Both the position numbers and the translations under genes were made by a program. The notes under the pieces were generated by a model, which saw nothing but the letters and a program-made list of their open reading frames with translations, had not been told where the DNA came from and made no database searches. DNA of 45,882 nt. Origin: an uncultured Candidatus Saccharibacteria bacterium. Lineage in GTDB: Bacteria > Patescibacteriota > Minisyncoccia > Phycocordibacterales > DATDSR01. The stretch lies in assembly GCA_964348575.1 (NCBI GenBank), contig CAYGDD010000002.1, positions 1 through 45,882 of the forward strand, read 5' to 3'. Positions 1 through 39,783 of the stretch are shown one piece after another (positions within the stretch are counted from its first letter, which is position 1; every line of letters starts with the position of its first letter).

Positions 1-1785
1 CCCATAGACAACCCTCCAGCGAATCCAATTAACTTTTCTGCTGTATATAGAAGTAATAATAATGATATACGCCTAACTTGGGTTAACACGCCCGAGCCTG
101 ACTTCTCTGTCGTGCGCGTTATGCGCTCTACCACTTTCTTTCCGTCAAGTCCAGGTGACGGCCTACTTATTTATGAAGGTAGTGGCACCTCATATAATGA
201 TACTAATATTGCAGATGGTGTAACTTACTACTATACTGCCTTCTCTAGAGATCTAGCCTCGCAATATTCTTCTGGCGCTATTGCTTTGGAAGAAGTACCA
301 AGGGTGCCTATTGGGGATATTGAGCCCAATGTAGATTTACCTCCCATAGATAAGCCACCTATCGCAGACATCTTTCCTCCTTCAACAGAAAATGTAGTGT
401 GGAACAGTAAGCTCACATTTATTGTTTCTCAAGGGAATAAGGCACAAGCATTTATGCAGGGCTCTGGGCTAGTTATAGATGGGGGGGTTTTAACCACTAT
501 ATATATACCCTATGATGACTTGCCCGAAGTATTGAAGACGATAGTGGTTAGCTTGCGACACCCAAAGGTGAGGGACCGGGTCTTTAACTTCTTACTTAGA
601 GTTGATCCAGGCAAGACTAAATTCTTAGCTAGTGTGGCGCCACTTCTTGATGCTGGTAAATATGACATGACTATTACCTTGCTGGATCACAAGAACGCTC
701 GCTTGCTAAGCTACAAAGGATTTCTGGAAATACCAAAGCTTGCAATAGTTGCAACGCTCAAAGATGGACGTTTTACTAGATTTGCTCCGGCGGGAGGCGT
801 GATAGGCCTGATGGCTGGGTTAACTCAGGTAATTGTGTTGTCAACAAATGTTAAATCTTTATTTGATGTTTATTTAATCATTGCCAGAGCTCTAGGAGCG
901 CTCTTCGGTTTCCTCGGCCTTAGGCGCAAGAGAGTGCCTTGGGGTACTGTGTATGATTCTGTTACTAAGCGACCTCTTGACCCAGCTTATGTAGTAGTTA
1001 CTAGTGCAAATAATTCGAGCACTATATCGGGCAAGCAAATAGCTGATGCTATCACCGATCTTGATGGTCGGTACAGCTTTCTGTTACCAGAGGGGACATA
1101 TATGATTACAGCGGGCAAGACGCACTACACATTCCCCTCAAAGCGCTTAGCAGGTAAAACAAGTGATGAGTTGTATAATAACCTCTACCACGGAGAGAAG
1201 ATCGAGAACTCCTCTGGCCTATTATTAACTCGTAACATACCACTTGATCCTATTGACTTTGACTGGAATGAGTTTGTAAAAGGCAAGCAATCTATTTACA
1301 AGATATATTCTAAACGTCATAAGATTACGACTATTGCGCTAGATATTTTATACTTTTTGGGCTTTGTCTTCACACTTATTTCCTTAGTCTTAAGTCCAAG
1401 CTTCTTTAATGCCATTGTAATGAGTTTTTATGTAATTTTATTTGTAGTAAACATATTTTGGAAGCTCAAATTTAAGGCAGTGCAAATTAAGAACTATTCC
1501 ACAGGGGAGATTTATCCGTTTGCAGTTGTGAGAATATATCTAGCTAGCCTAAATCAGGAAGTCAAGACAGTGGTGGCTGATGAGCTAGGCAGATTTAACC
1601 TACTAGTTTCTCCAGGACAATATTATCTTACAGTAGACGCTAAGGTCGATGACGGCTCTTACATGAGAGTTCATAAGAGTGAAGTTCTGGATTTACCAAA
1701 GGGAGTAATCCGTAAAAATATAATCATAGACGCAGTAGAGGGTAAATTAAAGAAGAGTTTAAGATTTATAAGTTCACCAAGATGA
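1..1785 (+). CDS. Membrane-anchored surface protein, 5'-partial (Fn3-like N-terminal segment, two carboxypeptidase-regulatory-like beta-sandwich domains separated by TM helices)
   Basis: Frame 1 is open from nt 1 (PIDNPPANPINFSAVYRSNNNDIRLTWVNTPEPDFSVVRV precedes the tracked Met at 112), so the gene starts upstream of the window. The segment ...LTWVN...DGVTYYYTAFSRD looks Fn3-like. Two motifs of the type G-x-V-x-D...PL...A-x-V...TDLDGRYSFLLPEGTYMITA and ADELGRFNLLVSPGQYYLTVDA are typical of CarboxypepD_reg. Hydrophobic TM stretches lie at aa ~225-270 and ~405-450. Confidence 0.7.
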   Translation, partial: PIDNPPANPINFSAVYRSNNNDIRLTWVNTPEPDFSVVRVMRSTTFFPSSPGDGLLIYEGSGTSYNDTNIADGVTYYYTAFSRDLASQYSSGAIALEEVPRVPIGDIEPNVDLPPIDKPPIADIFPPSTENVVWNSKLTFIVSQGNKAQAFMQGSGLVIDGGVLTTIYIPYDDLPEVLKTIVVSLRHPKVRDRVFNFLLRVDPGKTKFLASVAPLLDAGKYDMTITLLDHKNARLLSYKGFLEIPKLAIVATLKDGRFTRFAPAGGVIGLMAGLTQVIVLSTNVKSLFDVYLIIARALGALFGFLGLRRKRVPWGTVYDSVTKRPLDPAYVVVTSANNSSTISGKQIADAITDLDGRYSFLLPEGTYMITAGKTHYTFPSKRLAGKTSDELYNNLYHGEKIENSSGLLLTRNIPLDPIDFDWNEFVKGKQSIYKIYSKRHKITTIALDILYFLGFVFTLISLVLSPSFFNAIVMSFYVILFVVNIFWKLKFKAVQIKNYSTGEIYPFAVVRIYLASLNQEVKTVVADELGRFNLLVSPGQYYLTVDAKVDDGSYMRVHKSEVLDLPKGVIRKNIIIDAVEGKLKKSLRFISSPR

Positions 1786-4700
1786 TGTATTATATGAGTA
1801 CATCTTTCATGAATAAGTATACAAGGATGATCTCTCGTCGCATCTTTAGCCTGTTGTTTATTGCAGGTTTGTTTATATTGCTATCTGTGCCCAAGCCAAC
1901 AGTGGCTGCATCTTCAAGCTTTAATAAGTTAATAAATTATCAAGGCAAGCTTACCGATAGTTCGAGCGTGTCAATTAGTGATGGTAGCTATAATATGACC
2001 TTCCGCTTGTACACTACAGCCACAGCTGGGGCACCCCTCTGGCAAGAGGAGTGGACTTCTACAAGTACTCAAGTTGTTGTAACAGGTGGGCTCTTCAGTG
2101 TCCTTTTGGGTTCTAATCTCGCTCTAACATCGGTTGACTTTAACCAAGGACTATATTTGGGAGTGGAGATTGGGAGCACAACTACTACACCCGTCTGGGA
2201 CGGAGAAATGACCCCAAGGAAAAGGCTCGGAGCCGTGCCGGCCGCCTTTGAAGCAGATAAGTTAGACGGTCTAGATTCTAGCCAGTTCGTGCGCTCGGAT
2301 GATTCGGGCACGATTGCATCTAGCTCAGCTTCAACCCTCCTCGCCCTAACCCAATCTGGGGCAGGTAATATATTTAGTCTAGCTAATTCTGCCGGAGCAG
2401 TGTTCACTGTTACCAACAGTGGCAATATTGGTATAGGTACAACTAGTCCTTACGCCGCTTTGTCCATAGTGGGTAGTACTGGTGTAGTGGCCGGTAAGTA
2501 CCATGCAACCAATACTAATGCCACTAGTACTTTCGCTGGGGAAGCTGTTTTTAGTGGACGCGTAGGTATTGGCACTACTAGTCCATACACAGCGCACGCA
2601 TTAATGGTGGCAGGTAATGGCGGCACGCAGTTAGACATCGACGGTGATTCTGGCACTGGTGCTACAGTTGGCATAAACATAACAAGTAATACTAGCCGGT
2701 CGTGGCAGGTTGGCGTTAAGGGTACGAACGAGTCAGGGGCGTTTATAATTTATGATTCAACAGCAGGAGTGAGGCGACTCACAATAGATAGTATTGGTAA
2801 TTTTGGCATCGGCACCACTTCTCCATACGCCAAACTCTCAGTAGTAGGTGAGGTGGTGGCTAGTCACTTTACCGGTACTACTAGCGCTAGTTCTACTTTC
2901 GGGGGGCCACTGTCTGTGGCGGGCACGGCCACAAGTACTTGGACTGGCAACGGTGTTAATATCACAGGCGGTGGGTGTTTCGCCATTAGTGGTACTTGCG
3001 TGGGGAGTATCAGTGGTAGTGGTAGTGCTGGTCGCCTGACATTTTGGAATGGCGCAAGCTCCATCACTTCTACTTCTACCTTCATCTGGGATGACAATAC
3101 GGGCAGATTAGGTATTGGCACAAGCTCGCCCTCGAGAATGATATCCGTAGTAGGGGGATCTGGATTCTTTGGTCTTGGGGATGCGGTGAGCTCGAGTACA
3201 CTAGTACGAGCATCTAACATTAGTACACTGGGTGGCTATACATTCTCAGCAAGTCAAGGCAGATATGTGTATCTACACTCAAGTACTGTTTTAGCTACGT
3301 TGTTTATTGGTCCAAATGCCAGCACTACCCTAGTTTCCAGCATAACCACAGCTACTGCGGGTGGGGGACGTATAAAAATAGACGGACAGTATCTCTATGT
3401 GTCACACGACACAGGTTCAACAGGTTCAGTAGACATTTTTGACATTTCTAGACCTTCAAAGCCAGAATTGGTCGGAGTAGTTGAACCTGCTACTAGGATA
3501 GGTGGGTTCGCTGTGGCGGGAGGTTTTCTGTATATTTCGCCACTTGATCAGACACTAAGAGCCTACGATGTGTCTAACCCTAATGCCCCAGTGTTATTAA
3601 AAATTTATACAACTCCTGGAGTGGGAGCTAACCTATCGCGCTTGACCGTAAATGGTAGATATATATTTGCAAGAGCGGGGAATAACAATGTGATGATCCT
3701 AGATATAGCCGACCCGACTAATATAAAGCTTGTGTCCAACTTCTCGACCACCGCTGGAGCCCAGTCGCTAGAAGTGAATGGTAGATACCTGCATGTGGGC
3801 ACAGTACAAAATGCTTCTGTGAACGAGTACCAGATATACGATCTTATTGACCCATATGCCCCTGCCTTAATGGGTGGGGTTGAGTTTGGAAAGGATGTAG
3901 AAACCGTCCGAGTAAGTGGACGGTATGCGTATATTGGCATTGATACAAATTCTGCCGGGCCAGAAATTTTTGTTTACGATATTGCTGACCCATTGGCGCC
4001 CGTGGCCGTAGCCTCTAATGAAGTTGGCAACCACGTATATGGTATTGAATTAATAGGTAGATATATTGTGGCAAGCACTAATTCTGGCTCTGGGCTTATT
4101 ATTTATGAGAACTCGTCTGTTGAGTCTGCTTCGGTCCTTGCTCACTACCTTGAGGCTGGCAGGGCGAGTGTGATAAGAGATCTGGTGGTGGGGGGCCAGG
4201 CATTTCTCAATACTTCTCTCAATGTAGGTATGGGAGGAATTGGGTCACTAGGTGCAGGCGCATTCAGGGTCTTCTCTACCAGTTCTATAGCCGTACTTCC
4301 TGCCATTGGAGGGTCGGTAACAGATGGTTCAAATAATACCGTAGCTAATGTTCTCAACTTAGCTCACTATGCCACCACGAGCGTTGGTGTGAGGGCGGGT
4401 ATTGGAGCTGGCCTTACCTTCTCGGCACAGAACAATGCCACTACCTCAACTACTACTGCCAGTGTTGCTGGCATACTTACTGATACATCTACGACTTCAC
4501 CTGCCGGAGCCCTTACTTTCTCTACCAAAGGTAGCAGCATAGGCCTTAGTGAACGTATGCGTATTACTTCTACTGGCCTAGTTGGCATCGGGACAACTAG
4601 TCCCTACGCCGCTCTCTCTGTAGTAGGCTCAACGGGTGTAGTGGCGGATAAATACTTCGCCACTTCTACTATTGCAACTAGTACCTTCATGAGCACATTG

Positions 4701-5675
4701 GCTATTGCTACTACCACGCCACTATCGAATGCAATATTCGTGGTAGCTACTTCCTCGGGCACGGCCTTGGTAATAAATAGAAGCAATGGCTATGTCGGTG
4801 TGGGCACTACAACTCCCACAGGCCAGTTCTCAGTAAATGGTTCAGTCTTTTTAAAGAACATCAGTATAAGCGCGGCTGGAGATTCTGCCATTTGTTCTAC
4901 CTTGGGGGGTGAGATACGTCTAGCTTTGGGCCAAACTGACTGTATTATGTCATCGGCGCGTTATAAGGAGAGCATCAGTGATCTTGATCAGGGTCTTGAC
5001 ATTATTAGACGTCTACGACCTGTTAGCTATAACTACATCGGCCTTGAGGGACGACATGTCGGATTTATTGCCGAAGAAGTTGATAAGATTGACCCTAGGC
5101 TAGTTGCCAGAGACCCTGAGGGCATCATCAGAAGTGTGAGGTATAGTGAGACTGTGGCCATCCTTGCTCGTGCCATTCAGGAGCTAGATACAAAGCTTGC
5201 AACCTCACTTAACTCTAATCTATCAGCTTTTAGTAGCAACTCTCTAAGCATACTTGCTTTAGCAGGAAAAGGCATAAGTGAAGTAAGTTATCTTAATGAT
5301 GTAAATAGTAACTGGAGTATCTCATCTGATGGTCTCTTGCGCACGCGTGAAGTGCGCACACAGAGATTGTGTGTGGGTAGTGTGTGCATTAACGAGCTAG
5401 ACCTGCGAGCTTTACTTATAAAAAATGACATATACATTAACGGTCCAGAAGAGAATGGTCTCCCTGCTCCCGTAGTTGATATCAGCCCCACACAGACGCC
5501 TACTAGTACACCGGTGGAAGAAATAATACCTACTAGCACAACAACCCCTACCACCACGCCCACTACCGTTATTACTCCACAGCAAAGCTTAACTCCCACC
5601 AGCACTCCAGTTGCGCTACCCCAAGTGCCACTTTTGTCACCCACTAGCACCCCCACTACTACCAACCAGCAATAG
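1782..5675 (+). CDS. Giant secreted fibre-like surface protein (signal anchor, GIGTTSP collar repeats, LVIVD-type beta-propeller, tail-fibre intramolecular chaperone/peptidase S74-like domain, Pro/Thr-rich tail)
   Basis: 1297-aa ORF with an ATGA overlap onto the upstream gene. The N-terminus is hydrophobic (IFSLLFIAGLFILLSVPKPTVAASS). There are six copies of G-x-[IVLF]-G-[IV]-G-T-[TS]-[ST]-P followed by ...LSVVG. About seven blades have the form x-G-[RQ]-Y-x-[YF]...[LI]-x-[IV]-[YF]-D-[IV]-[SA]-[DRN]-P. SSARYKESISDL...HVGFIAEEVDKIDPRL...SETVAILARAIQELDTKL resembles the endosialidase/tail-spike chaperone domain. The last ~90 aa are mostly P/T. Confidence 0.85.
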   Translation: MMYYMSTSFMNKYTRMISRRIFSLLFIAGLFILLSVPKPTVAASSSFNKLINYQGKLTDSSSVSISDGSYNMTFRLYTTATAGAPLWQEEWTSTSTQVVVTGGLFSVLLGSNLALTSVDFNQGLYLGVEIGSTTTTPVWDGEMTPRKRLGAVPAAFEADKLDGLDSSQFVRSDDSGTIASSSASTLLALTQSGAGNIFSLANSAGAVFTVTNSGNIGIGTTSPYAALSIVGSTGVVAGKYHATNTNATSTFAGEAVFSGRVGIGTTSPYTAHALMVAGNGGTQLDIDGDSGTGATVGINITSNTSRSWQVGVKGTNESGAFIIYDSTAGVRRLTIDSIGNFGIGTTSPYAKLSVVGEVVASHFTGTTSASSTFGGPLSVAGTATSTWTGNGVNITGGGCFAISGTCVGSISGSGSAGRLTFWNGASSITSTSTFIWDDNTGRLGIGTSSPSRMISVVGGSGFFGLGDAVSSSTLVRASNISTLGGYTFSASQGRYVYLHSSTVLATLFIGPNASTTLVSSITTATAGGGRIKIDGQYLYVSHDTGSTGSVDIFDISRPSKPELVGVVEPATRIGGFAVAGGFLYISPLDQTLRAYDVSNPNAPVLLKIYTTPGVGANLSRLTVNGRYIFARAGNNNVMILDIADPTNIKLVSNFSTTAGAQSLEVNGRYLHVGTVQNASVNEYQIYDLIDPYAPALMGGVEFGKDVETVRVSGRYAYIGIDTNSAGPEIFVYDIADPLAPVAVASNEVGNHVYGIELIGRYIVASTNSGSGLIIYENSSVESASVLAHYLEAGRASVIRDLVVGGQAFLNTSLNVGMGGIGSLGAGAFRVFSTSSIAVLPAIGGSVTDGSNNTVANVLNLAHYATTSVGVRAGIGAGLTFSAQNNATTSTTTASVAGILTDTSTTSPAGALTFSTKGSSIGLSERMRITSTGLVGIGTTSPYAALSVVGSTGVVADKYFATSTIATSTFMSTLAIATTTPLSNAIFVVATSSGTALVINRSNGYVGVGTTTPTGQFSVNGSVFLKNISISAAGDSAICSTLGGEIRLALGQTDCIMSSARYKESISDLDQGLDIIRRLRPVSYNYIGLEGRHVGFIAEEVDKIDPRLVARDPEGIIRSVRYSETVAILARAIQELDTKLATSLNSNLSAFSSNSLSILALAGKGISEVSYLNDVNSNWSISSDGLLRTREVRTQRLCVGSVCINELDLRALLIKNDIYINGPEENGLPAPVVDISPTQTPTSTPVEEIIPTSTTTPTTTPTTVITPQQSLTPTSTPVALPQVPLLSPTSTPTTTNQQ

Positions 5676-16069: not shown

Positions 16070-16113
16070 ATAAATAACATTCCCGAAGGGTTACCCTTCG
16101 GAGGAGACGATAG

Positions 16114-16136
16114 AGCCCGCTTTTGGCGGGCTTTTA
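16114..16136 (+). terminator. Rho-independent terminator after lysS
   Basis: AGCCCGC-TTTTG-GCGGGCT hairpin followed by TTTAT. Confidence 0.7.
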
Positions 16137-21070: not shown

Positions 21071-21116
21071 AAAGTACGAGTAGTTAAGACTAGATTAAAC
21101 TTATAAGAAAAGAATA

Positions 21117-21142
21117 ACCGCTGGGGGAAGGCCCCCAACGGT
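21117..21142 (-). terminator. Rho-independent terminator of the GC-rich 138-aa gene
   Basis: ACCGCTGGGGG-AAGG-CCCCCAACGGT hairpin with one mismatch. On the minus strand it is followed by TATTCTTTTCTT, and it starts 1 nt after the stop codon. Confidence 0.7.
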
Positions 21143-21143
21143 A

Positions 21144-21560
21144 TCAGTCTCGTAGCGCCAGGGCCTGCTCCGTGAAGCAGGCTACTAGCACCAAGTCACG
21201 GTTAGTGACATTGCGAGTCACCTTCCGAGTCCTGGCCTCCGCCTTGTGACGGACGTCCACCCACTCCTCCTTACTGGTTCTGCCACCAGCGGCAGCAATC
21301 ACAGGAAGAGTAACAACAAATTCCACGGCAAGGAGGTAGTACCCACTCGGTAGTAAGCCGAGGTTCTCCTGCACCCTACCCTTGGTATTTGCTGGCACGA
21401 AATTATGGGGCTCGGTCTGCTCTCGCTCAATGCGAGTAGTGACTAAGTCACCCACCAACGGCTCTCGGTACCCGGTAGGAGGAGTGTATTTTGCTCCCCC
21501 TTCTTTTTTCCTTCTTCTTCTCTTCCACCTCACAGTGCTAGTTGCAGTGGTTGCTGGCAT
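21144..21560 (-). CDS. Hypothetical 138-aa protein with an Arg/Lys-rich N-terminus (island unit U1)
   Basis: I chose the ATG at 21560 (Met17 of the tracked ORF) because GGAGG (21568-21572) lies 7 nt upstream and the promoter occupies the rest of the tracked N-terminus. G+C/GC3 is higher than in the flanking genes. No family was recognised. Confidence 0.6.
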   Translation of the reverse strand: MPATTATSTVRWKRRRRKKEGGAKYTPPTGYREPLVGDLVTTRIEREQTEPHNFVPANTKGRVQENLGLLPSGYYLLAVEFVVTLPVIAAAGGRTSKEEWVDVRHKAEARTRKVTRNVTNRDLVLVACFTEQALALRD

Positions 21561-21579
21561 GGTGTTCCCTCCAATTAGC

Positions 21580-21608
21580 ATTATACCATAGGCATATATA
21601 TAATGCAA
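21580..21608 (-). promoter_or_regulatory. Near-consensus promoter TTGCAT-17-TATAAT for U1
   Basis: Minus strand: TTGCAT (21603-21608), 17-nt spacer, TATAAT (21580-21585), then GGAGG and ATG. Confidence 0.65.
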
Positions 21609-21671
21609 GGGTTATCCACAGATACTGTAGTTAGTCTTGGTGAATAAGTATGTGTGACGAGTAGGTAAGAG

Positions 21672-21700
21672 TGGAAAATTAGCAAGAAATAGGCTATATT
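21672..21700 (+). promoter_or_regulatory. Candidate promoter upstream of the tRNA-Glu leader (TGGAAA-17-TATATT)
   Basis: TGGAAA at 21672-21677, 17-nt spacer, TATATT at 21695-21700. The -35 box is weak. Confidence 0.35.
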
Positions 21701-21893
21701 AAGCGAGTCAGCCTAATGTGTCTTGGCCTAAATCCACAGTAGTGGATCGGCCGAACATTTTGCTGGCAAAATGTTTTAGGCCCTATCGTCTCCACCTACG
21801 CTCAAACTTGCGTATGAGCTTCGGAGGGACAAGTATCGGTAAATCACCCATGCTTGCCCTGCGAAGCTCCGATGTAAATCGGAGCGAAGTAGG

Positions 21894-21965
21894 GGCCCTA
21901 TCGTCTATCGGTTAGGACACAAGCTTCTCAAGCTTGGAAGCGGAGTTCGACTCTCCGTAGGGTCA
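21894..21965 (+). tRNA. tRNA-Glu (anticodon CUC), CCA not encoded
   Basis: Manual cloverleaf: acceptor GGCCCTA/TAGGGTC (one G-U), D-arm GTCT-ATCGGTTA-GGAC, anticodon arm CAAGC-TTCTCAA-GCTTG, variable GAAG, T-arm CGGAG-TTCGACT-CTCCG, discriminator A. The TCGTCTA...AGGACA D-region is typical of tRNA-Glu. Confidence 0.85.
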
Positions 21966-21980
21966 CAAATCGTAACAAAA

Positions 21981-22006
21981 ACACCCCATCTACGTGGGGT
22001 GTTTTT
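21981..22006 (+). terminator. Rho-independent terminator after tRNA-Glu
   Basis: ACACCCCA-TCTACG-TGGGGTGT followed by TTTT. Confidence 0.75.
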
Positions 22007-22011
22007 GTCAG

Positions 22012-22138
22012 AGAGCAAACTGCTTTGCTCTTGTGCGATTTGTGAAGACGGAAGCATGTTTTGCTACCAAGCAAAACGGCTGAGTCCGGGGCTGGGAAAT
22101 TCAGTTTCGACGGAAACTGAATTATTGTGGCTCACAAT
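22012..22138. repeat. Cluster of four perfect short hairpins
   Basis: AGAGCAAA-CTGC-TTTGCTCT (22012-22031). GTTTTGCT-ACCA-AGCAAAAC (22058-22077). AATTCAGTTTC-GACG-GAAACTGAATT (22098-22123). ATTGTG-GCT-CACAAT (22124-22138). Confidence 0.7.
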
Positions 22139-22200
22139 ATCACGTATGCGTAGCATTCCATTGTCTAGTCGAGGGAGTCATTCTCCGTAGTTCCCCAACA

Positions 22201-22370
22201 AGAAATAAACGGTGTCAGGTACCGTTTCTGTATGATATTATCCAGTCATGTTTGGGGCATTACATAAGGCTGAGAGTGTTTACCATGTCCCAAACTGAGC
22301 TAACGAGAGGCCTTTAGTATTTGACCAAAAAAAGTACCTGACCCCTTTTATCCCTGACCCCTTTTATCTT
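22201..22370 (+). repeat. 170-bp direct repeat, copy A (MITE-like, subterminal inverted repeats)
   Basis: Identical to 23347-23516 at every position I compared by eye. The left arm ATAAACGGTGTCAGGTAC (22205-22222) is a 16/18 inverted copy of GTACCTGACCCCTTTTAT (22334-22351). An internal 11-bp stem pairs 22250-22260 with 22285-22295. Confidence 0.85.
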
Positions 22371-22412
22371 AATGGGGACGGGGTGTTGGGTGCTGTGGGG
22401 GGAGACAAATGC

Positions 22413-22440
22413 TTGACAAGGTCAAGTCGGCTAGTGTAAT
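22413..22440 (+). promoter_or_regulatory. Promoter of island unit U2 (TTGACA-16-TGTAAT)
   Basis: TTGACA at 22413-22418 is embedded in the palindrome CTTGAC-AAG-GTCAAG (22412-22426). TGTAAT lies at 22435-22440. Confidence 0.6.
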
Positions 22441-22446
22441 GTAAGA

Positions 22447-23121
22447 TTGGAAGTTAGGCCGTCGAATGGCCGGAAATGGAGGAACACTTTGCCGATCTTC
22501 AACATCAGATTGATCCCACAGAACAAGGGCGACGACTTCTATCGTCGCATCTACGAAGACATGGTGGCAGTCGTTATGGCCGATCGTCAGTTGCAGAAGC
22601 GCTTCGAAGACCACAGGCAACTGAGCTTCTGCTTCAACGCTGACCTCATGGAGTACGGCATGGGGGAGGAAGTAGTGATCGAGGTTACGCGCATGCCACA
22701 GATCGAGGGCGTGCCCTGGGCAAGGATCGCCGCCGAACTTGGCCTCTCCATCACCACCCTGCTGCCCGACACCAAGCTGGTCAACGTTTACATCGGATCC
22801 GAAACCGCGCCCTTGGCCGAGTGGTCTTCTGCGGACATGGAGATCAACTTCCAGGAGTGGTGCGACCGGACCATGCACCTCTCGGAGACGGAATCATCCA
22901 TCAAGTCCCGCCTGGGCCAGCTGATGCTCCGCTACAAGGAGCCTCTCGTCCGGCACATCTTCAAGAGTGTCGCAGAGAAGGAGTTTGACGCTCACATCAT
23001 GCGCCTGCTTCACGAGCTCACTGGTGAGGATCCTGTCCACGAGTATGATCGGGGCAAGATCCGAGTCATGGCTGCTTTCTGGATGGGATGGGGCCGAACC
23101 GCTGGCTACGACACTCTGTAA
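22447..23121 (+). CDS. Hypothetical ~210-224-aa protein with a central helix-turn-helix-like segment (island unit U2)
   Basis: Strongly GC3-biased ORF flanked by a promoter and a terminator. The tracked TTG start is at 22447. A better start is the TTG at 22489, 6 nt after GGAGG (22478-22482). WARIAAELGLSITTL resembles an HTH. No family was recognised. Confidence 0.65.
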   Translation: MEVRPSNGRKWRNTLPIFNIRLIPQNKGDDFYRRIYEDMVAVVMADRQLQKRFEDHRQLSFCFNADLMEYGMGEEVVIEVTRMPQIEGVPWARIAAELGLSITTLLPDTKLVNVYIGSETAPLAEWSSADMEINFQEWCDRTMHLSETESSIKSRLGQLMLRYKEPLVRHIFKSVAEKEFDAHIMRLLHELTGEDPVHEYDRGKIRVMAAFWMGWGRTAGYDTL

Positions 23122-23346
23122 CCCACCGAGCCCTGGTGGTCCGACACGATACGCGATAGCGTCGTGATTGGGCCCCGGGCTCGATTTGTTTTAATACTTG
23201 ATTTATTTCAAACAAAGAGTAGTGCTTAATGGTGTGCTTAATGGTGTCAGGAACCTTTAATTTCAGCAACCCTTAATTTTCAGGTAGGCCAAAGCAGGTC
23301 TCACTTGTTAGACTCTCTGGGATCAGGTGTAGGAATAAACGGTGTC

Positions 23347-23516
23347 AGAAATAAACGGTGTCAGGTACCGTTTCTGTATGATATTATCCAGTCATGTTTG
23401 GGGCATTACATAAGGCTGAGAGTGTTTACCATGTCCCAAACTGAGCTAACGAGAGGCCTTTAGTATTTGACCAAAAAAAGTACCTGACCCCTTTTATCCC
23501 TGACCCCTTTTATCTT
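23347..23516 (+). repeat. 170-bp direct repeat, copy B
   Basis: Identical by eye to 22201-22370. It is preceded by an extra partial copy of its own first 15 nt (AATAAACGGTGTCAG at 23334-23348). Confidence 0.85.
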
Positions 23517-23637
23517 CGACAATTACATCACATATGGCAGATTAGCTCTCTATCTATAGCCGGTCGTAATTCTGCGTCTAGATAACACTTGCATGCTTTA
23601 CTTAAGCGATAGCAATTCTATTATTCTATTGAGTGCA

Positions 23638-23667
23638 TTGACAAAATGGATAATGTGTGCATATAAT
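23638..23667 (+). promoter_or_regulatory. Consensus promoter TTGACA-18-TATAAT of island unit U3
   Basis: TTGACA at 23638-23643 and TATAAT at 23662-23667. Confidence 0.65.
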
Positions 23668-23868
23668 GTATGTAGCTAACTAGTAACAGTATCGAAGGAG
23701 AACTCGTTATAGTTAGTAGATCTCTAAAATGATTCTGGAACCCTCTTGGAGTTACTTAGCTAGTACCTAACAACTAGCAACTAGTACCTACAAGAGGGAG
23801 GTGCGCGCTTTAGTCGCACCTGGACTTGCCTAGTCAGCAAGTGACAGCCCCTCGCTAAGGACAGAGTT

Positions 23869-24060
23869 ATGTTCAGAGCGATTGGATTTGTCATAGTGCT
23901 TCTAGCAGTCCGGTTCCTTATGCCAGTGGCCTTCCACTCGGCAGAGGACACCCTCGTTCAGGTCTTTGGCGCCTTGCAGAGCGCCGTGGCAGAAGTAAGC
24001 CAAAACAACCTGCTTGCCTCGCCATCAGGCGGGCTTGCCTCGCCTACGGTAAGTAGGTAG
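23869..24060 (+). CDS. Small 63-aa hydrophobic/secreted peptide (island unit U3)
   Basis: AAGGA (23857-23861) lies 7 nt before the ATG. The N-terminal segment MFRAIGFVIVLLAVRFLMPVAFHSA looks like a TM helix or signal peptide. G+C is high and a terminator follows directly. Confidence 0.5.
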   Translation: MFRAIGFVIVLLAVRFLMPVAFHSAEDTLVQVFGALQSAVAEVSQNNLLASPSGGLASPTVSR

Positions 24061-24067
24061 TCACCAA

Positions 24068-24100
24068 CCCTGTCGCTCGCGAGCGACGGGGTTCTTGCTT
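24068..24100 (+). terminator. Rho-independent terminator after U3
   Basis: CCCTGTCGCT-CGCG-AGCGACGGGG hairpin (one G-U pair) followed by TTCTTGCTT. Confidence 0.65.
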
Positions 24101-24125
24101 ATCTAATATTTGCTACAATAGGGTT

Positions 24126-25142
24126 ATGAACATTGCCTATGTGATAGCGGGGTTGCTTGTGGGTGGGATTGGGGCTTATTTGATCTTTAAGCCTAAGGAG
24201 GGGCAGGAGGATAAGAGAGAGGGGGAAAGGGAACTCACTCTCATCCAAAACCAACTTAATGCCTTAGCCGGCGTACTTCGTGATATGACTAAAGAAGTAG
24301 CAGGCGTACAAGCAACCAATCAGAGCGTGATTAAGGTGGCAGAGCAATTGCAAAGCTTGCAGAATGTTTTACAAAATCCCAAACAGCGCGGGGTACTAGG
24401 GGAGTACTATCTTGAGACTGTACTTAAGAACGTGCTCCCACCAGGTTCGTTCCAACTCCAGTATAAGTTTGCCAATGGCGAGATAGCCGATGCTGTAATA
24501 ATCCTAGGCAAAGACCCTTCCTCTGGTGGTAGGGCAGGCAAACTCTTGTCGGTGGATAGTAAGTTTAGCCTTGAGAACTATAACAGGATTATAGCTACTA
24601 ATGACCAAGCAGAGCGCGAGCGTTTGGAGAAGGTTTTTAAACAGGATTTGAAAAATAGGATAGATGAGACAGCTAAATATATCAGACCAAGTGAGGGCAC
24701 TATGGACTTTGCCTTCATGTTTATCCCATCAGAGGCGATCTACTATGACTTACTTATCAACCAAGTTGGAGCGGTTAAAACTAGCACAAGAGATCTGATA
24801 GAGTACGCTTTTCAAGATAAGAAGGTGATTATAGTTTCGCCTACATCATTTATGGCGTACCTTCAGACAGTACTCCAAGGCTTGCGCTCGCTACAGATTG
24901 AGGAGACAGCCAAGGATATCCAGAAGAGGGTGGGGGAGTTAGGTAGGCACTTGCTTAGCCACGACCAGTTTATGCAGTCATTGGGCAAGTCCTTGGGTAC
25001 GACAGTAAGTCACTATAACAAAGCTTCCCACGAACTTGCCAAAATAGATAAAGATGTACTAAGGATATCAGGCGAGGCCCCATCCGCCAGCCGACGGATA
25101 GGGCGCGAGACTCTAGACCTACCCCTCTCCCCAGGCCAGTAA
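24126..25142 (+). CDS. rmuC: DNA recombination protein RmuC
   Basis: 338 aa with an N-terminal TM helix, a coiled-coil, and RGVLGEYYLETVL...DSKFSLENY...MFIPSEAIYYD, typical of RmuC. TACAAT (24114-24119) lies 6 nt upstream of the ATG. Confidence 0.85.
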   Translation: MNIAYVIAGLLVGGIGAYLIFKPKEGQEDKREGERELTLIQNQLNALAGVLRDMTKEVAGVQATNQSVIKVAEQLQSLQNVLQNPKQRGVLGEYYLETVLKNVLPPGSFQLQYKFANGEIADAVIILGKDPSSGGRAGKLLSVDSKFSLENYNRIIATNDQAERERLEKVFKQDLKNRIDETAKYIRPSEGTMDFAFMFIPSEAIYYDLLINQVGAVKTSTRDLIEYAFQDKKVIIVSPTSFMAYLQTVLQGLRSLQIEETAKDIQKRVGELGRHLLSHDQFMQSLGKSLGTTVSHYNKASHELAKIDKDVLRISGEAPSASRRIGRETLDLPLSPGQ

Positions 25143-38983: not shown

Positions 38984-39364
38984 CTACAGCATCTCGAACG
39001 ATGCTGGATGGAGTTGAATCCAGATGAAGCAGTTACCCTTGAGCTGAGGGATCCCCTCTCTCAACCCGGCTGCGATTCGCTTGCGTCGCTCATCGAGATT
39101 AGCCCTACGTGCCGGGTACTCGTTGGCGTGGACGATGATCTGCAGAGGCAGAGTGTTGATATCGAGCTCGTGTCCGTCACGCACTTGCACCTCGATCTCA
39201 TCCACGGAGAGCCGACCCTCTGGCTCCTCCGGAACGTCCAATTCCTTTGCGACCAGCTCCCGTGTCAGCTCTCCTAGCAGCAGGACATTTGCATCCGGGA
39301 TGTTGTTCCCGGAGTGGGACAGCTCGGTCTTGTCGAGCTTACGATAAATTTCGATCAATGGCAT
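38984..39364 (-). CDS. Hypothetical 126-aa protein, possibly tautomerase-superfamily-like (Met-Pro start, two beta-alpha-beta halves) (island unit U4)
   Basis: I chose the ATG at 39364 (Met63 of the tracked ORF). AGGAG lies 9 nt upstream and the promoters occupy the remaining tracked N-terminus. The protein starts MPLIEIY and the second half contains LQIIVHA...DERRKRIAAGL...CFIWIQL. GC3 bias is strong. Confidence 0.6.
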   Translation of the reverse strand: MPLIEIYRKLDKTELSHSGNNIPDANVLLLGELTRELVAKELDVPEEPEGRLSVDEIEVQVRDGHELDINTLPLQIIVHANEYPARRANLDERRKRIAAGLREGIPQLKGNCFIWIQLHPASFEML

Positions 39365-39389
39365 ATCGGAGTTCTCCTTTCCTGAGGCG

Positions 39390-39434
39390 AGTCTAGCAAA
39401 AAGCTTGACAAATGTCAATAGGGTGGTGTATAAT
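39390..39434. promoter_or_regulatory. Back-to-back divergent promoters sharing a 14-bp palindrome of their -35 boxes
   Basis: Plus strand: TTGACA (39405-39410), 18-nt spacer, TATAAT (39429-39434). Minus strand: TTGACA (plus-strand TGTCAA at 39413-39418), 17-nt spacer, TAGACT (plus-strand 39390-39395). Together they form TTGACA-AA-TGTCAA at 39405-39418. Confidence 0.7.
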
Positions 39435-39561
39435 ATAGGATGTAAATCTTGAGCTGTTGGGTAATCAGGTTCAAGATTGGTCCGCCCTTCCTTATCCCCT
39501 CGAAAGAGCAAGCGGATGGGCTCCTGAGACTGGATTATGACCCCAGCCAAAGGAGAGACCG

Positions 39562-39783
39562 ATGGACATTTATGTTTGTGTTAAGTGCGAACGGAGTTTC
39601 AAGACCAACGACGAGAACGCTGAAACTTGTGAGAAGTGTAGCAAGCAAGAGTGCTTTACTGACCACACTGGAACTATCGACCTCAGCGATGTCCCCTGTG
39701 AGTTTGAGATTCAGGACTATGAGGATAACGGGATGTGCTATCGCTGTGGGGCACCCCCGTACGTAGACTGCAACTGCGACTAG
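39562..39783 (+). CDS. Acidic 73-aa protein with 10 cysteines (zinc-ribbon-like CxxC pairs) (island unit U5)
   Basis: AAGGAG lies 6-7 nt before the ATG. The cysteine pattern is CVKC...CEKC...C...C...CYRC...CNC. A terminator follows directly. Confidence 0.65.
   Translation: MDIYVCVKCERSFKTNDENAETCEKCSKQECFTDHTGTIDLSDVPCEFEIQDYEDNGMCYRCGAPPYVDCNCD

Follow-up and report, generated by a model that had tools for sequence, protein, structure and literature searches.

A probable accessory junction between murF and rmuC in a Patescibacteria-type genome, with a two-domain gene placed between two apparent REP/RAYT-derived miniature elements

The 45.9-kb contig analysed here (CAYGDD010000002.1, positions 1 to 45,882; hereafter the window) carries a gap of about 3 kb between murF and rmuC (21071-24125), which is probably a variable accessory junction with independently acquired cargo genes led by Shine-Dalgarno (SD) sequences, one of which, U2, would have been carried by elements derived from repetitive extragenic palindromic (REP) sequences and their REP-associated tyrosine transposases (RAYT). 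The window has approximately 46% G+C and a compact housekeeping gene order, in which mraZ-rsmH-ftsL-ftsI-murF extend along the plus strand up to 21070, and rmuC, rplU, recR, dnaB and cysS follow 3’ of the gap from 24126 onward. The gap contains a tRNA-Glu(CTC), three open reading frames (ORFs) named U1, U2 and U3, found at the positions given by the first-pass annotation of this DNA, dense hairpins and a perfect 170-bp direct repeat (Table 1). That annotation had taken the segment for horizontally acquired hotspot cargo, a view that holds with qualifications: the foreign composition of U2, the SD-led ORFs, the variable junction beside a tRNA and the mobile-element remnants flanking U2 all agree with it, and the horizontal origin, the mode of insertion and the function proposed below are inferred. 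There is no evidence that its three genes belong to one module: they are transcribed separately, differ in codon usage (z -1.0, -8.4 and -5.1) and the repeats bracket U2 only. Taken as a whole, the segment is real but a fairly ordinary accessory hotspot.

The 170-bp direct repeat, already noticed by the first-pass annotation, has 100% identity between its two copies (22201-22370 and 23347-23516) and is, judging from its sequence, a miniature non-autonomous internal-deletion derivative of a REP/RAYT (IS200-like Y1 transposase) element. Inverted hairpins terminate both copies (AAACGGT-GTCAGGT-ACCGTTT at one end, GTACCTGACCCCTTTT at the opposite one), and each copy folds as one long hairpin (folding z -2.75 and -2.1). 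In a metagenome scan, both termini were found at the observed spacing at 14 loci, and at three loci (L031, L032 and L035) the same terminal motifs directly flank open frames of about 680 bp (227 residues translated). The ORFs of L031 and L032 match the Pfam family Y1_Tnp (E about 3e-14, above the gathering score) and the NCBIfam family ‘REP-associated tyrosine transposase’ (E 1e-16 to 1e-18, below the curated cut-off), and these profile matches are those of the L031 and L032 ORFs, the L035 ORF being identical to that of L032 in its printed stretch and in length. The stems covary across genomes (AAACGGT/ACCGTTT, AAAAGGT/ACCTTTT and GGGGT/ACCCC), with the GTCAGGT loop constant. In an alignment, several short elements, including those of the window, keep the RAYT -10 box, the ATG and the first codons, and this retention of promoter and first codons is the reason for considering them deletion derivatives similar to miniature inverted-repeat transposable elements (MITEs). 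The remnant in copy 1 starts with an ATG at 22251 and reads MFGALHKAESVYHVPN before a stop, compared to MGRVRRVDVGGLVYHALNRG at the 5’ end of full-length RAYT genes, with the VYHxxN codons retained.

The core motif GTCAGGWAC occurs five times in the window against 0.6 expected, and since all of these occurrences lie within 22214-23488 the elements are confined to the flanks of U2, with two copies and one solo REP, all around that gene. The first-pass statement that no integrase or transposase is present is correct for the genes of the window, but the repeat itself appears to derive from a Y1-transposase (RAYT) element. An integron-cassette or attC reading of the repeat was rejected, as its ends misfit the RYYYAAC...GTTRRRY core sites and no intI is present in the window; a scan of viral contigs with the 170-bp repeat found nothing. 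Separately, on a metagenome contig of 60% G+C (L032, 3854-9712, and L035), a full-length RAYT gene lies amid dense clusters of GTCAGGTAC REP hairpins and of miniature elements, and the GTCAGGTAC REP family ranges over contigs of 37% to 65% G+C.

U2 is the gene between these elements. Its TTG start at 22489 is backed by the N-termini of its homologs (MPxI...) and by a public gene call of 210 aa. A word-indexed search of 5.8 billion proteins returned only U2 itself, and no significant family was found for it in Pfam, PHROGs, PADLOC or NCBIfam; in Pfam, nothing appeared at E <= 0.1 and the sole match was SAGA-Tad1 with E 0.21, the profile searches with U1-U3 in these four collections having given two chance-level matches only (E 0.21 and 0.25). 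The earlier statement that no recognisable family is involved is therefore right for these collections, but a full HMMER scan of 1.8 billion representatives recovered 67 relatives of U2, two of them full-length (202 and 208 aa), the others matching the N-terminal or the C-terminal half alone. With the homolog alignment, the AlphaFold2 model of U2 reaches a predicted local distance difference test score (pLDDT) of 94.3, compared to only 37.7 for a single-sequence model. In Foldseek searches, residues 1-115 of the model resemble fused 4-OT, Cg10062, cis-CaaD and MIF (probability 1.0, target-normalised template-modelling scores of 0.5-0.64), and this region is predicted to be a tautomerase-superfamily fold with a duplicated beta-alpha-beta unit. 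U2 begins with MPIF, a tautomerase-like Met-Pro start in which Pro-1 is kept, and one of its relatives matches the Pfam family Tautomerase with E 0.015. No match was found between U2 and viral structures in Foldseek, the N-domain family gave nothing in the viral-contig scan, and tblastn searches of phages and plasmids were empty. As modelled, U2 is a new, soluble two-domain protein.

The second domain, residues 117-207, is a six-helix domain in the model and belongs to a family whose more than 1,140 members are all annotated as ‘hypothetical’ and which is absent from Pfam, NCBIfam and PADLOC and abundant in unrelated phyla, including Gemmataceae, Nitrospira and Deltaproteobacteria. The C-domain and the tautomerase-like N-domain would represent two unannotated families, the latter divergent. 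In 5/5 unrelated contexts, a stand-alone C-domain gene lies directly 5’ of a DUF7689 gene (Pfam-confirmed), overlapping it or 1 nt apart and presumably coupled to it in translation; one of these pairs is located within a type I restriction-modification locus of Nitrospira, and one family member is fused to an excisionase-type helix-turn-helix (HTH), which looks like an antitoxin-like architecture. This context suggests a type II toxin-antitoxin-like layout for the C-domain/DUF7689 pair, in which the C-domain would act as a protein-binding or neutralising module. DUF7689 was not found anywhere in the window, and U2 is therefore best described as an apparent orphan of this pairing, with its C-domain uncoupled from any DUF7689 and fused instead to what may be a small-molecule enzyme or binding domain. 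DUF7689 was not found in the literature, and searches of PDB sequences with DUF7689 and the C-domain profile returned nothing.

The two-gene module itself, a helical-domain gene (105-240 aa) followed by DUF7689 (about 145-156 aa), is found at L014, L016-L022 and L038-L040, and an unannotated gene of 249-268 aa lies just 5’ of it at L038 and L039/L040. An NCIAxA motif recurs in the four full-length DUF7689 proteins read, along with one invariant His and several invariant Trp positions, a pattern hinting that DUF7689 may be a Cys/His hydrolase.

The composition and the translation signals of the gap differ from those of the host genes, whose third-codon-position G+C (GC3) is 0.46 (standard deviation 0.046, maximum 0.578). 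U2 is unambiguously foreign by composition and a strong outlier, U3 is moderately atypical, and U1, with its host-like codon usage, hardly so at all; the higher GC3 that the first-pass annotation ascribed to the three island ORFs relative to their flanks thus applies strongly to U2, moderately to U3 and hardly to U1. The contrast in translation signals is sharper than that in codon usage or GC3. As had been noted before, the island ORFs have strong SD motifs (GGAGG or AAGGA at proper spacing, 3/3) and the host genes largely lack them (an SD-like motif in 1/34). In many host genes, an extended -10 box, TGnTAnAAT, lies 6-10 nt 5’ of the ATG, and such a box so near the ATG is a signature of leaderless mRNAs. 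The host pattern implies that leaderless mRNAs would be widespread; starts cited for the SD-less or leaderless pattern are 14144, 24126, 27504, 28918, 28977, 33093, 36662 and 44641. A second islet of the same style is found at 38984-39783, with two divergent SD-led, GC3-rich genes, V1 and V2, neither of which has a family match in Pfam or PADLOC. V1, a 126-aa protein starting with MPLIEIY, was considered as a paralog of the U2 N-domain and ruled out (hhalign probability 1%). Both further contigs that encode a full-length U2 homolog, L012 and L013, show this split as well, in that housekeeping genes are without SD, and GC3-rich genes (0.65-0.80), including the U2 homolog, have strong SD (L012, 1-2250; L013, 3704-8609). 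Palindromic repeats of 30 nt and 44 nt bracket a group of genes in L012 that consists of the U2 homolog and its neighbours, one MerR-type gene and an ORF of 104 aa.

The expression signals of U1 and U3 are good, and public assemblies list both as genes. No match was found for U1 in Pfam, PHROGs, PADLOC, NCBIfam, phage records or viral contigs, and the word-indexed search of 5.8 billion proteins again returned the query only; U3 has no family match in Pfam, PHROGs, PADLOC or NCBIfam. They are most likely separate lineage-specific small genes. As to the defence or toxin role suggested in the first-pass annotation, none of U1-U3 matches a catalogued defence protein in PADLOC, and U2 would hold just the antitoxin-like half of a putative two-gene module. 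Clusters of MurF, RmuC, U1, U3 and L21 at 90% identity gave no strain variants usable for presence/absence comparison or for the ratio of nonsynonymous to synonymous substitution rates (dN/dS).

Several observations weigh against a junction with acquired cargo in which U2 travelled with REP/RAYT-derived elements. No RAYT gene is present within the 45.9-kb window and no target-site duplication is seen at the 170-bp elements, whose 41% G+C is host-like, unlike that of U2; the codon usage of U1 is host-like too. The Foldseek E-values of the U2 N-domain are just about 4e-3, and Pro is found at position 2 in 7/12 members of the N-domain family, a partial conservation of Pro-1 that makes an enzymatic activity of U2 doubtful. 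The toxin-antitoxin reading of the C-domain/DUF7689 pair comes from gene order only, and PADLOC lists neither of the two. Every further contig carrying U1 or U2 belongs to this one population (at least 99.7% identity), and the junction from copy 1 to U2 occurs only in the window contig, the other assemblies breaking in the repeat. Finally, the SD/GC3 split recurs in the related contigs L012 and L013, and the SD-led genes could therefore be a long-resident accessory class of the clade instead of recent imports.

This last point leads to an alternative that we consider unlikely, in which U1-U3 are native lineage-specific accessory genes, SD-led GC3-rich genes are a standing second class in these genomes, and the 170-bp elements merely inserted beside U2. 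The two-class pattern in L012 and L013 and in the second islet at 38984-39783 agrees with it, as do the host-like codon usage of U1 and the fact that the sole full-length U2 homologs reside in contigs with SD-less core genes, that of L013 in a gene order resembling the candidate phyla radiation (CPR). However, a codon-usage z of -8.4 for U2 should have shrunk under long residence, the REP motifs occur nowhere else in the 45.9 kb, and the C-domain family is abundant in Gemmataceae, Nitrospira and Deltaproteobacteria. An acquired origin of the cargo is preferred, and given the position of U2 between two identical 170-bp elements, two routes are the most likely: U2 may have arrived, or been duplicated, as a passenger between two such elements, or a small circle of 1146 bp, made of U2 and one element, may have recombined with a resident copy.

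On the tRNA side, contigs break off 99 nt inside copy 1; those with U2 begin within that copy, 99-122 nt short of its end, and three assemblies are continuous from U2 through copy 2 to U3-rmuC. Because all independent assemblies break inside the repeat, the assembly graph is a loop, and it fits three structures: a single integrated copy, a tandem array, or a single chromosomal element plus a 1146-bp circle. The same breaks would be expected if the repeat-gene-repeat structure were partly an assembly construct, with one chromosomal 170-bp element and a separate circular or tandem 1146-bp U2 unit; this is very improbable, as three assemblies cross U2, copy 2 and U3-rmuC, the 45.9-kb window contig resolves one pass of the loop, and a 1.1-kb circle would be without replication function.

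The junction itself appears older than its content. In the first-pass annotation, the island was placed at the point where the division and cell wall (dcw) cluster breaks off, with ftsW-murG displaced to the other strand. The displacement was confirmed (ftsW and murG at 34.4-36.7 kb, minus strand, within an S11 peptidase-ftsW-murG group at 34.4-37.5 kb, an arrangement that resembles another CPR-like contig), but the insertion as its cause was not borne out. At only 38% identity, the closest MurF found among species representatives is that of a Saccharibacteria metagenome-assembled genome (L008), and the host is therefore taken to be, in all probability, a poorly sampled bacterium of Patescibacteria/CPR type. 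In L008, the dcw cluster likewise ends at murF, followed by other content, with a tRNA-Glu(CTC) about 1.3 kb downstream on the opposite strand; mraY as the gene after murF in L008 was ruled out, that gene being an FAD-binding monooxygenase. As L008 shares both the break and the tRNA, both would be ancestral and the junction variable in both lineages. The dcw break is thus, on this comparison of gene orders, an apparently old one that predates the island, and the tRNA-Glu(CTC) is probably native at its position. The murF-rmuC gap would therefore be an old variable junction by a native tRNA-Glu(CTC) in a Patescibacteria/CPR-type genome, which would have gathered independently transcribed, SD-led, import-like genes amid an SD-less and largely leaderless core.

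Partial tRNA copies had also been reported in the segment, and they divide. At 21779-21791, the 13-nt match to the tRNA 5’ end exceeds chance (0.03 expected with one mismatch allowed), yet it is closer to an intergenic motif at 16105-16117 than to the tRNA, and the 9-mer TCTCCGTAG at 22182-22190, taken as a 3’ copy, was reproduced in 6/100 shuffles, which is chance level. A decayed prophage or integrative island once integrated in tRNA-Glu, with these copies as old att sites, is accordingly very unlikely: the segment adjoins the tRNA, holds the 5’ copy and has the 3’ copy directly 5’ of repeat copy 1, and a tRNA-Glu(TTC) allele (L007) differs in the 3’ half only, its contig ending right after, but besides the weakness of both copies there are no integrase, phage genes or PHROG matches in the segment and U1 lies 5’ of the tRNA, outside any 3’-end integration.

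As separate observations on this tRNA, a motif GGCyCTATCGTCTCCnCC is present in two intergenic regions, at 16105-16117 (minus strand) and 21779-21797, and overlaps the sequence of the tRNA-Glu 5’ end. In sample ERZ27247830, L007 1-90 (window 21880-21969) has tRNA-Glu(TTC) in place of CTC with identical upstream context and five differing positions, all in the 3’ half and some of them compensatory changes in the T-stem, and the contig stops 2 nt past the tRNA; either strains may differ in this half of the tRNA, or the assembly may have crossed over to a paralogous one.

What is new here is the identity proposed for the 170-bp repeat, the two-domain U2 together with the family that partners DUF7689, and the way in which SD-led accessory genes stand out from a leaderless core. 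REPINs, pairs of inverted REP sequences that fold as one hairpin, are usually treated as gene-free. If the proposed reading is true, REP/RAYT-derived miniature elements bracket, and perhaps move, a protein-coding gene in a candidate-phyla genome, the helical domain tightly paired with DUF7689, with its more than 1,100 members, is a candidate for a new module of the toxin-antitoxin type, the tautomerase-fold domain is a divergent second family, and accessory or imported genes in this lineage follow a simple rule, SD and high GC3 as opposed to leaderless and low GC3. If it is not, the segment is an ordinary strain-specific intergenic hotspot. A bolder version, to which we give little credence, would see in REP-U2-REP a RAYT-mobilisable cassette for gene capture and delivery into CPR genomes, and in U2 an orphan neutraliser or sensor, or an enzyme-plus-inhibitor fusion, directed against DUF7689-type Cys/His effectors of neighbours or hosts, with the clade keeping an SD-led, GC3-rich imported pool beside its leaderless core.

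Table 1. Features of the murF-rmuC gap and of the second islet, with window coordinates
Feature	Position	Strand	GC3	Codon-usage z	Details
Bidirectional hairpin terminator, murF/U1	21117-21142				11-bp stem, 8 G-C pairs, then T-run
U1	21144-21560	-	0.58	-1.0	138-aa ORF; Arg/Lys-rich N-terminus; SD GGAGGG 6 nt 5’ of ATG
Divergent back-to-back promoters	21575-21608				In palindrome GCATTATA...TATAATGC
Hairpin-rich tract 5’ of tRNA	21610-21893				Holds 13-nt copy of tRNA 5’ end, 21779-21791
tRNA-Glu(CTC)	21894-21966	+			
Terminator 3’ of tRNA	21975-22008	+			Perfect 14-bp stem
Four perfect short hairpins	22009-22200				Stems 7-11 bp; end in weak tRNA-3’-like TCTCCGTAG, 22182-22190
Copy 1, 170-bp element	22201-22370	+			Inverted REP hairpins, core GGTGTCAGGTACC / GGTACCTGACC; tandem CCTGACCCCTTTTATC x2; putative RAYT 5’ remnant
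Candidate U2 promoter	22413-22440	+			TTGACA-16-TGTAAT, by eye
U2	22489-23121	+	0.78	-8.4	210 aa; SD GGAGG; start codon TTG
U2 terminator	23166-23186	+			Hairpin
Solo REP-like hairpin	23240-23258	+			AATGGTGTCAGGAACCTTT; 3’ of tandem GTGCTTAATGGT x2
Copy 2, 170-bp element	23347-23516	+			100% identical to copy 1; extra half-repeat 23331-23348
U3 promoter	23638-23667	+			Consensus sigma-70, 12/12 match
U3 leader	23668-23868	+			About 200 nt, structured; folding z -3.4
U3	23869-24060	+	0.62	-5.1	63-aa ORF; hydrophobic N-terminus; SD AAGGA
U3 terminator	24066-24093	+			Directly 5’ of leaderless-type rmuC promoter
V1	38984-39364	-	0.69		126 aa; starts MPLIEIY; SD AAAGGAG
V2	39562-39783	+	0.62		73 aa; Cys-rich; SD AAAGGAG

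The expression signals of the gap follow the pattern described by the first-pass annotation in part. A hairpin terminator is indeed found 3’ of each ORF (Table 1). As for the promoters of their own that were ascribed to the three genes, that of U3 is perfect, and those of U1 and U2 are plausible but imperfect and were recognised by eye: the minus-strand promoter facing U1 reads TTGCAT-17-TATAAT, with a 3/6 match at -35, and the U2 promoter is absent from the promoter-scan list because position 2 of its -10 box is not A. The plus-strand promoter in the same palindrome as that of U1 (TTAGCA-18-TATAAT, 10/12 in the promoter scan) faces the tRNA. The rmuC promoter, TTGCTACAAT, is leaderless-type and lies 6 nt 5’ of the ATG at 24126. 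The hairpin clusters reported earlier are real, as the tracts on both sides of the tRNA fold better than shuffled sequence, with folding z of -5.5 (plus strand) and -8.2 (minus strand) for 21610-21895 and -5.7 for 21967-22200; in Rfam, at gathering and permissive thresholds, only the tRNA was recognised and the hairpin tract has no family. The U3 leader contains a direct repeat, CTAGTACCTA x2, has no Rfam match and may serve as a regulatory leader or represent a small RNA. Elsewhere in the window, 1782-5675 encodes a 1297-aa protein in which LVIVD repeats are combined with a Peptidase_S74 (endosialidase chaperone) domain; it may be surface or tail-fibre-like.

Similarities and differences with known systems can be described at several levels. 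As in tRNA-linked genomic islands, the segment adjoins a tRNA, is atypical in composition and has unassigned cargo, but it differs from them in spanning 3 kb only, in having no integrase and no convincing att repeats, and in placing genes on both sides of the tRNA. The likeness to type II toxin-antitoxin systems resides in the relatives of the U2 C-domain, which as stand-alone proteins are small and encoded 5’ of and overlapping a conserved DUF7689 gene, with one relative carrying an N-terminal excisionase-type HTH and one pair in a restriction-modification locus, while U2 itself is without a partner gene and has a tautomerase-like domain in place of a DNA-binding one. The U2 N-domain shares with the tautomerase superfamily a duplicated beta-alpha-beta unit of about 115 residues and a Met-Pro start; on the other hand, it has 7-18% identity to solved members, falls below the Pfam threshold, belongs to a family in which Pro-1 is not conserved and is fused to a helical domain.

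The closest comparison for the repeat is with REPIN and REP-RAYT systems (Bertels & Rainey 2011, PMC3116915, PMC3337134; Bertels et al. 2017, PMC5581495). Like a REPIN, the 170-bp element has two inverted REP-type hairpins folding as one long hairpin and appears non-autonomous and extragenic, and, as in REP-RAYT systems, RAYT-type Y1 transposase genes, here in other genomes, have this hairpin motif directly beside them. Unlike a classic REP doublet, the element is longer, at 170 bp, and keeps what appear to be the RAYT promoter and first codons, and its REP core, GGTGTCAGGTACC, lacks both tags, GTAG and CGTC, that PMC3733652 describes. Also unlike REPINs, there are only two copies and a solo REP around one gene, in direct orientation and bracketing a cargo.

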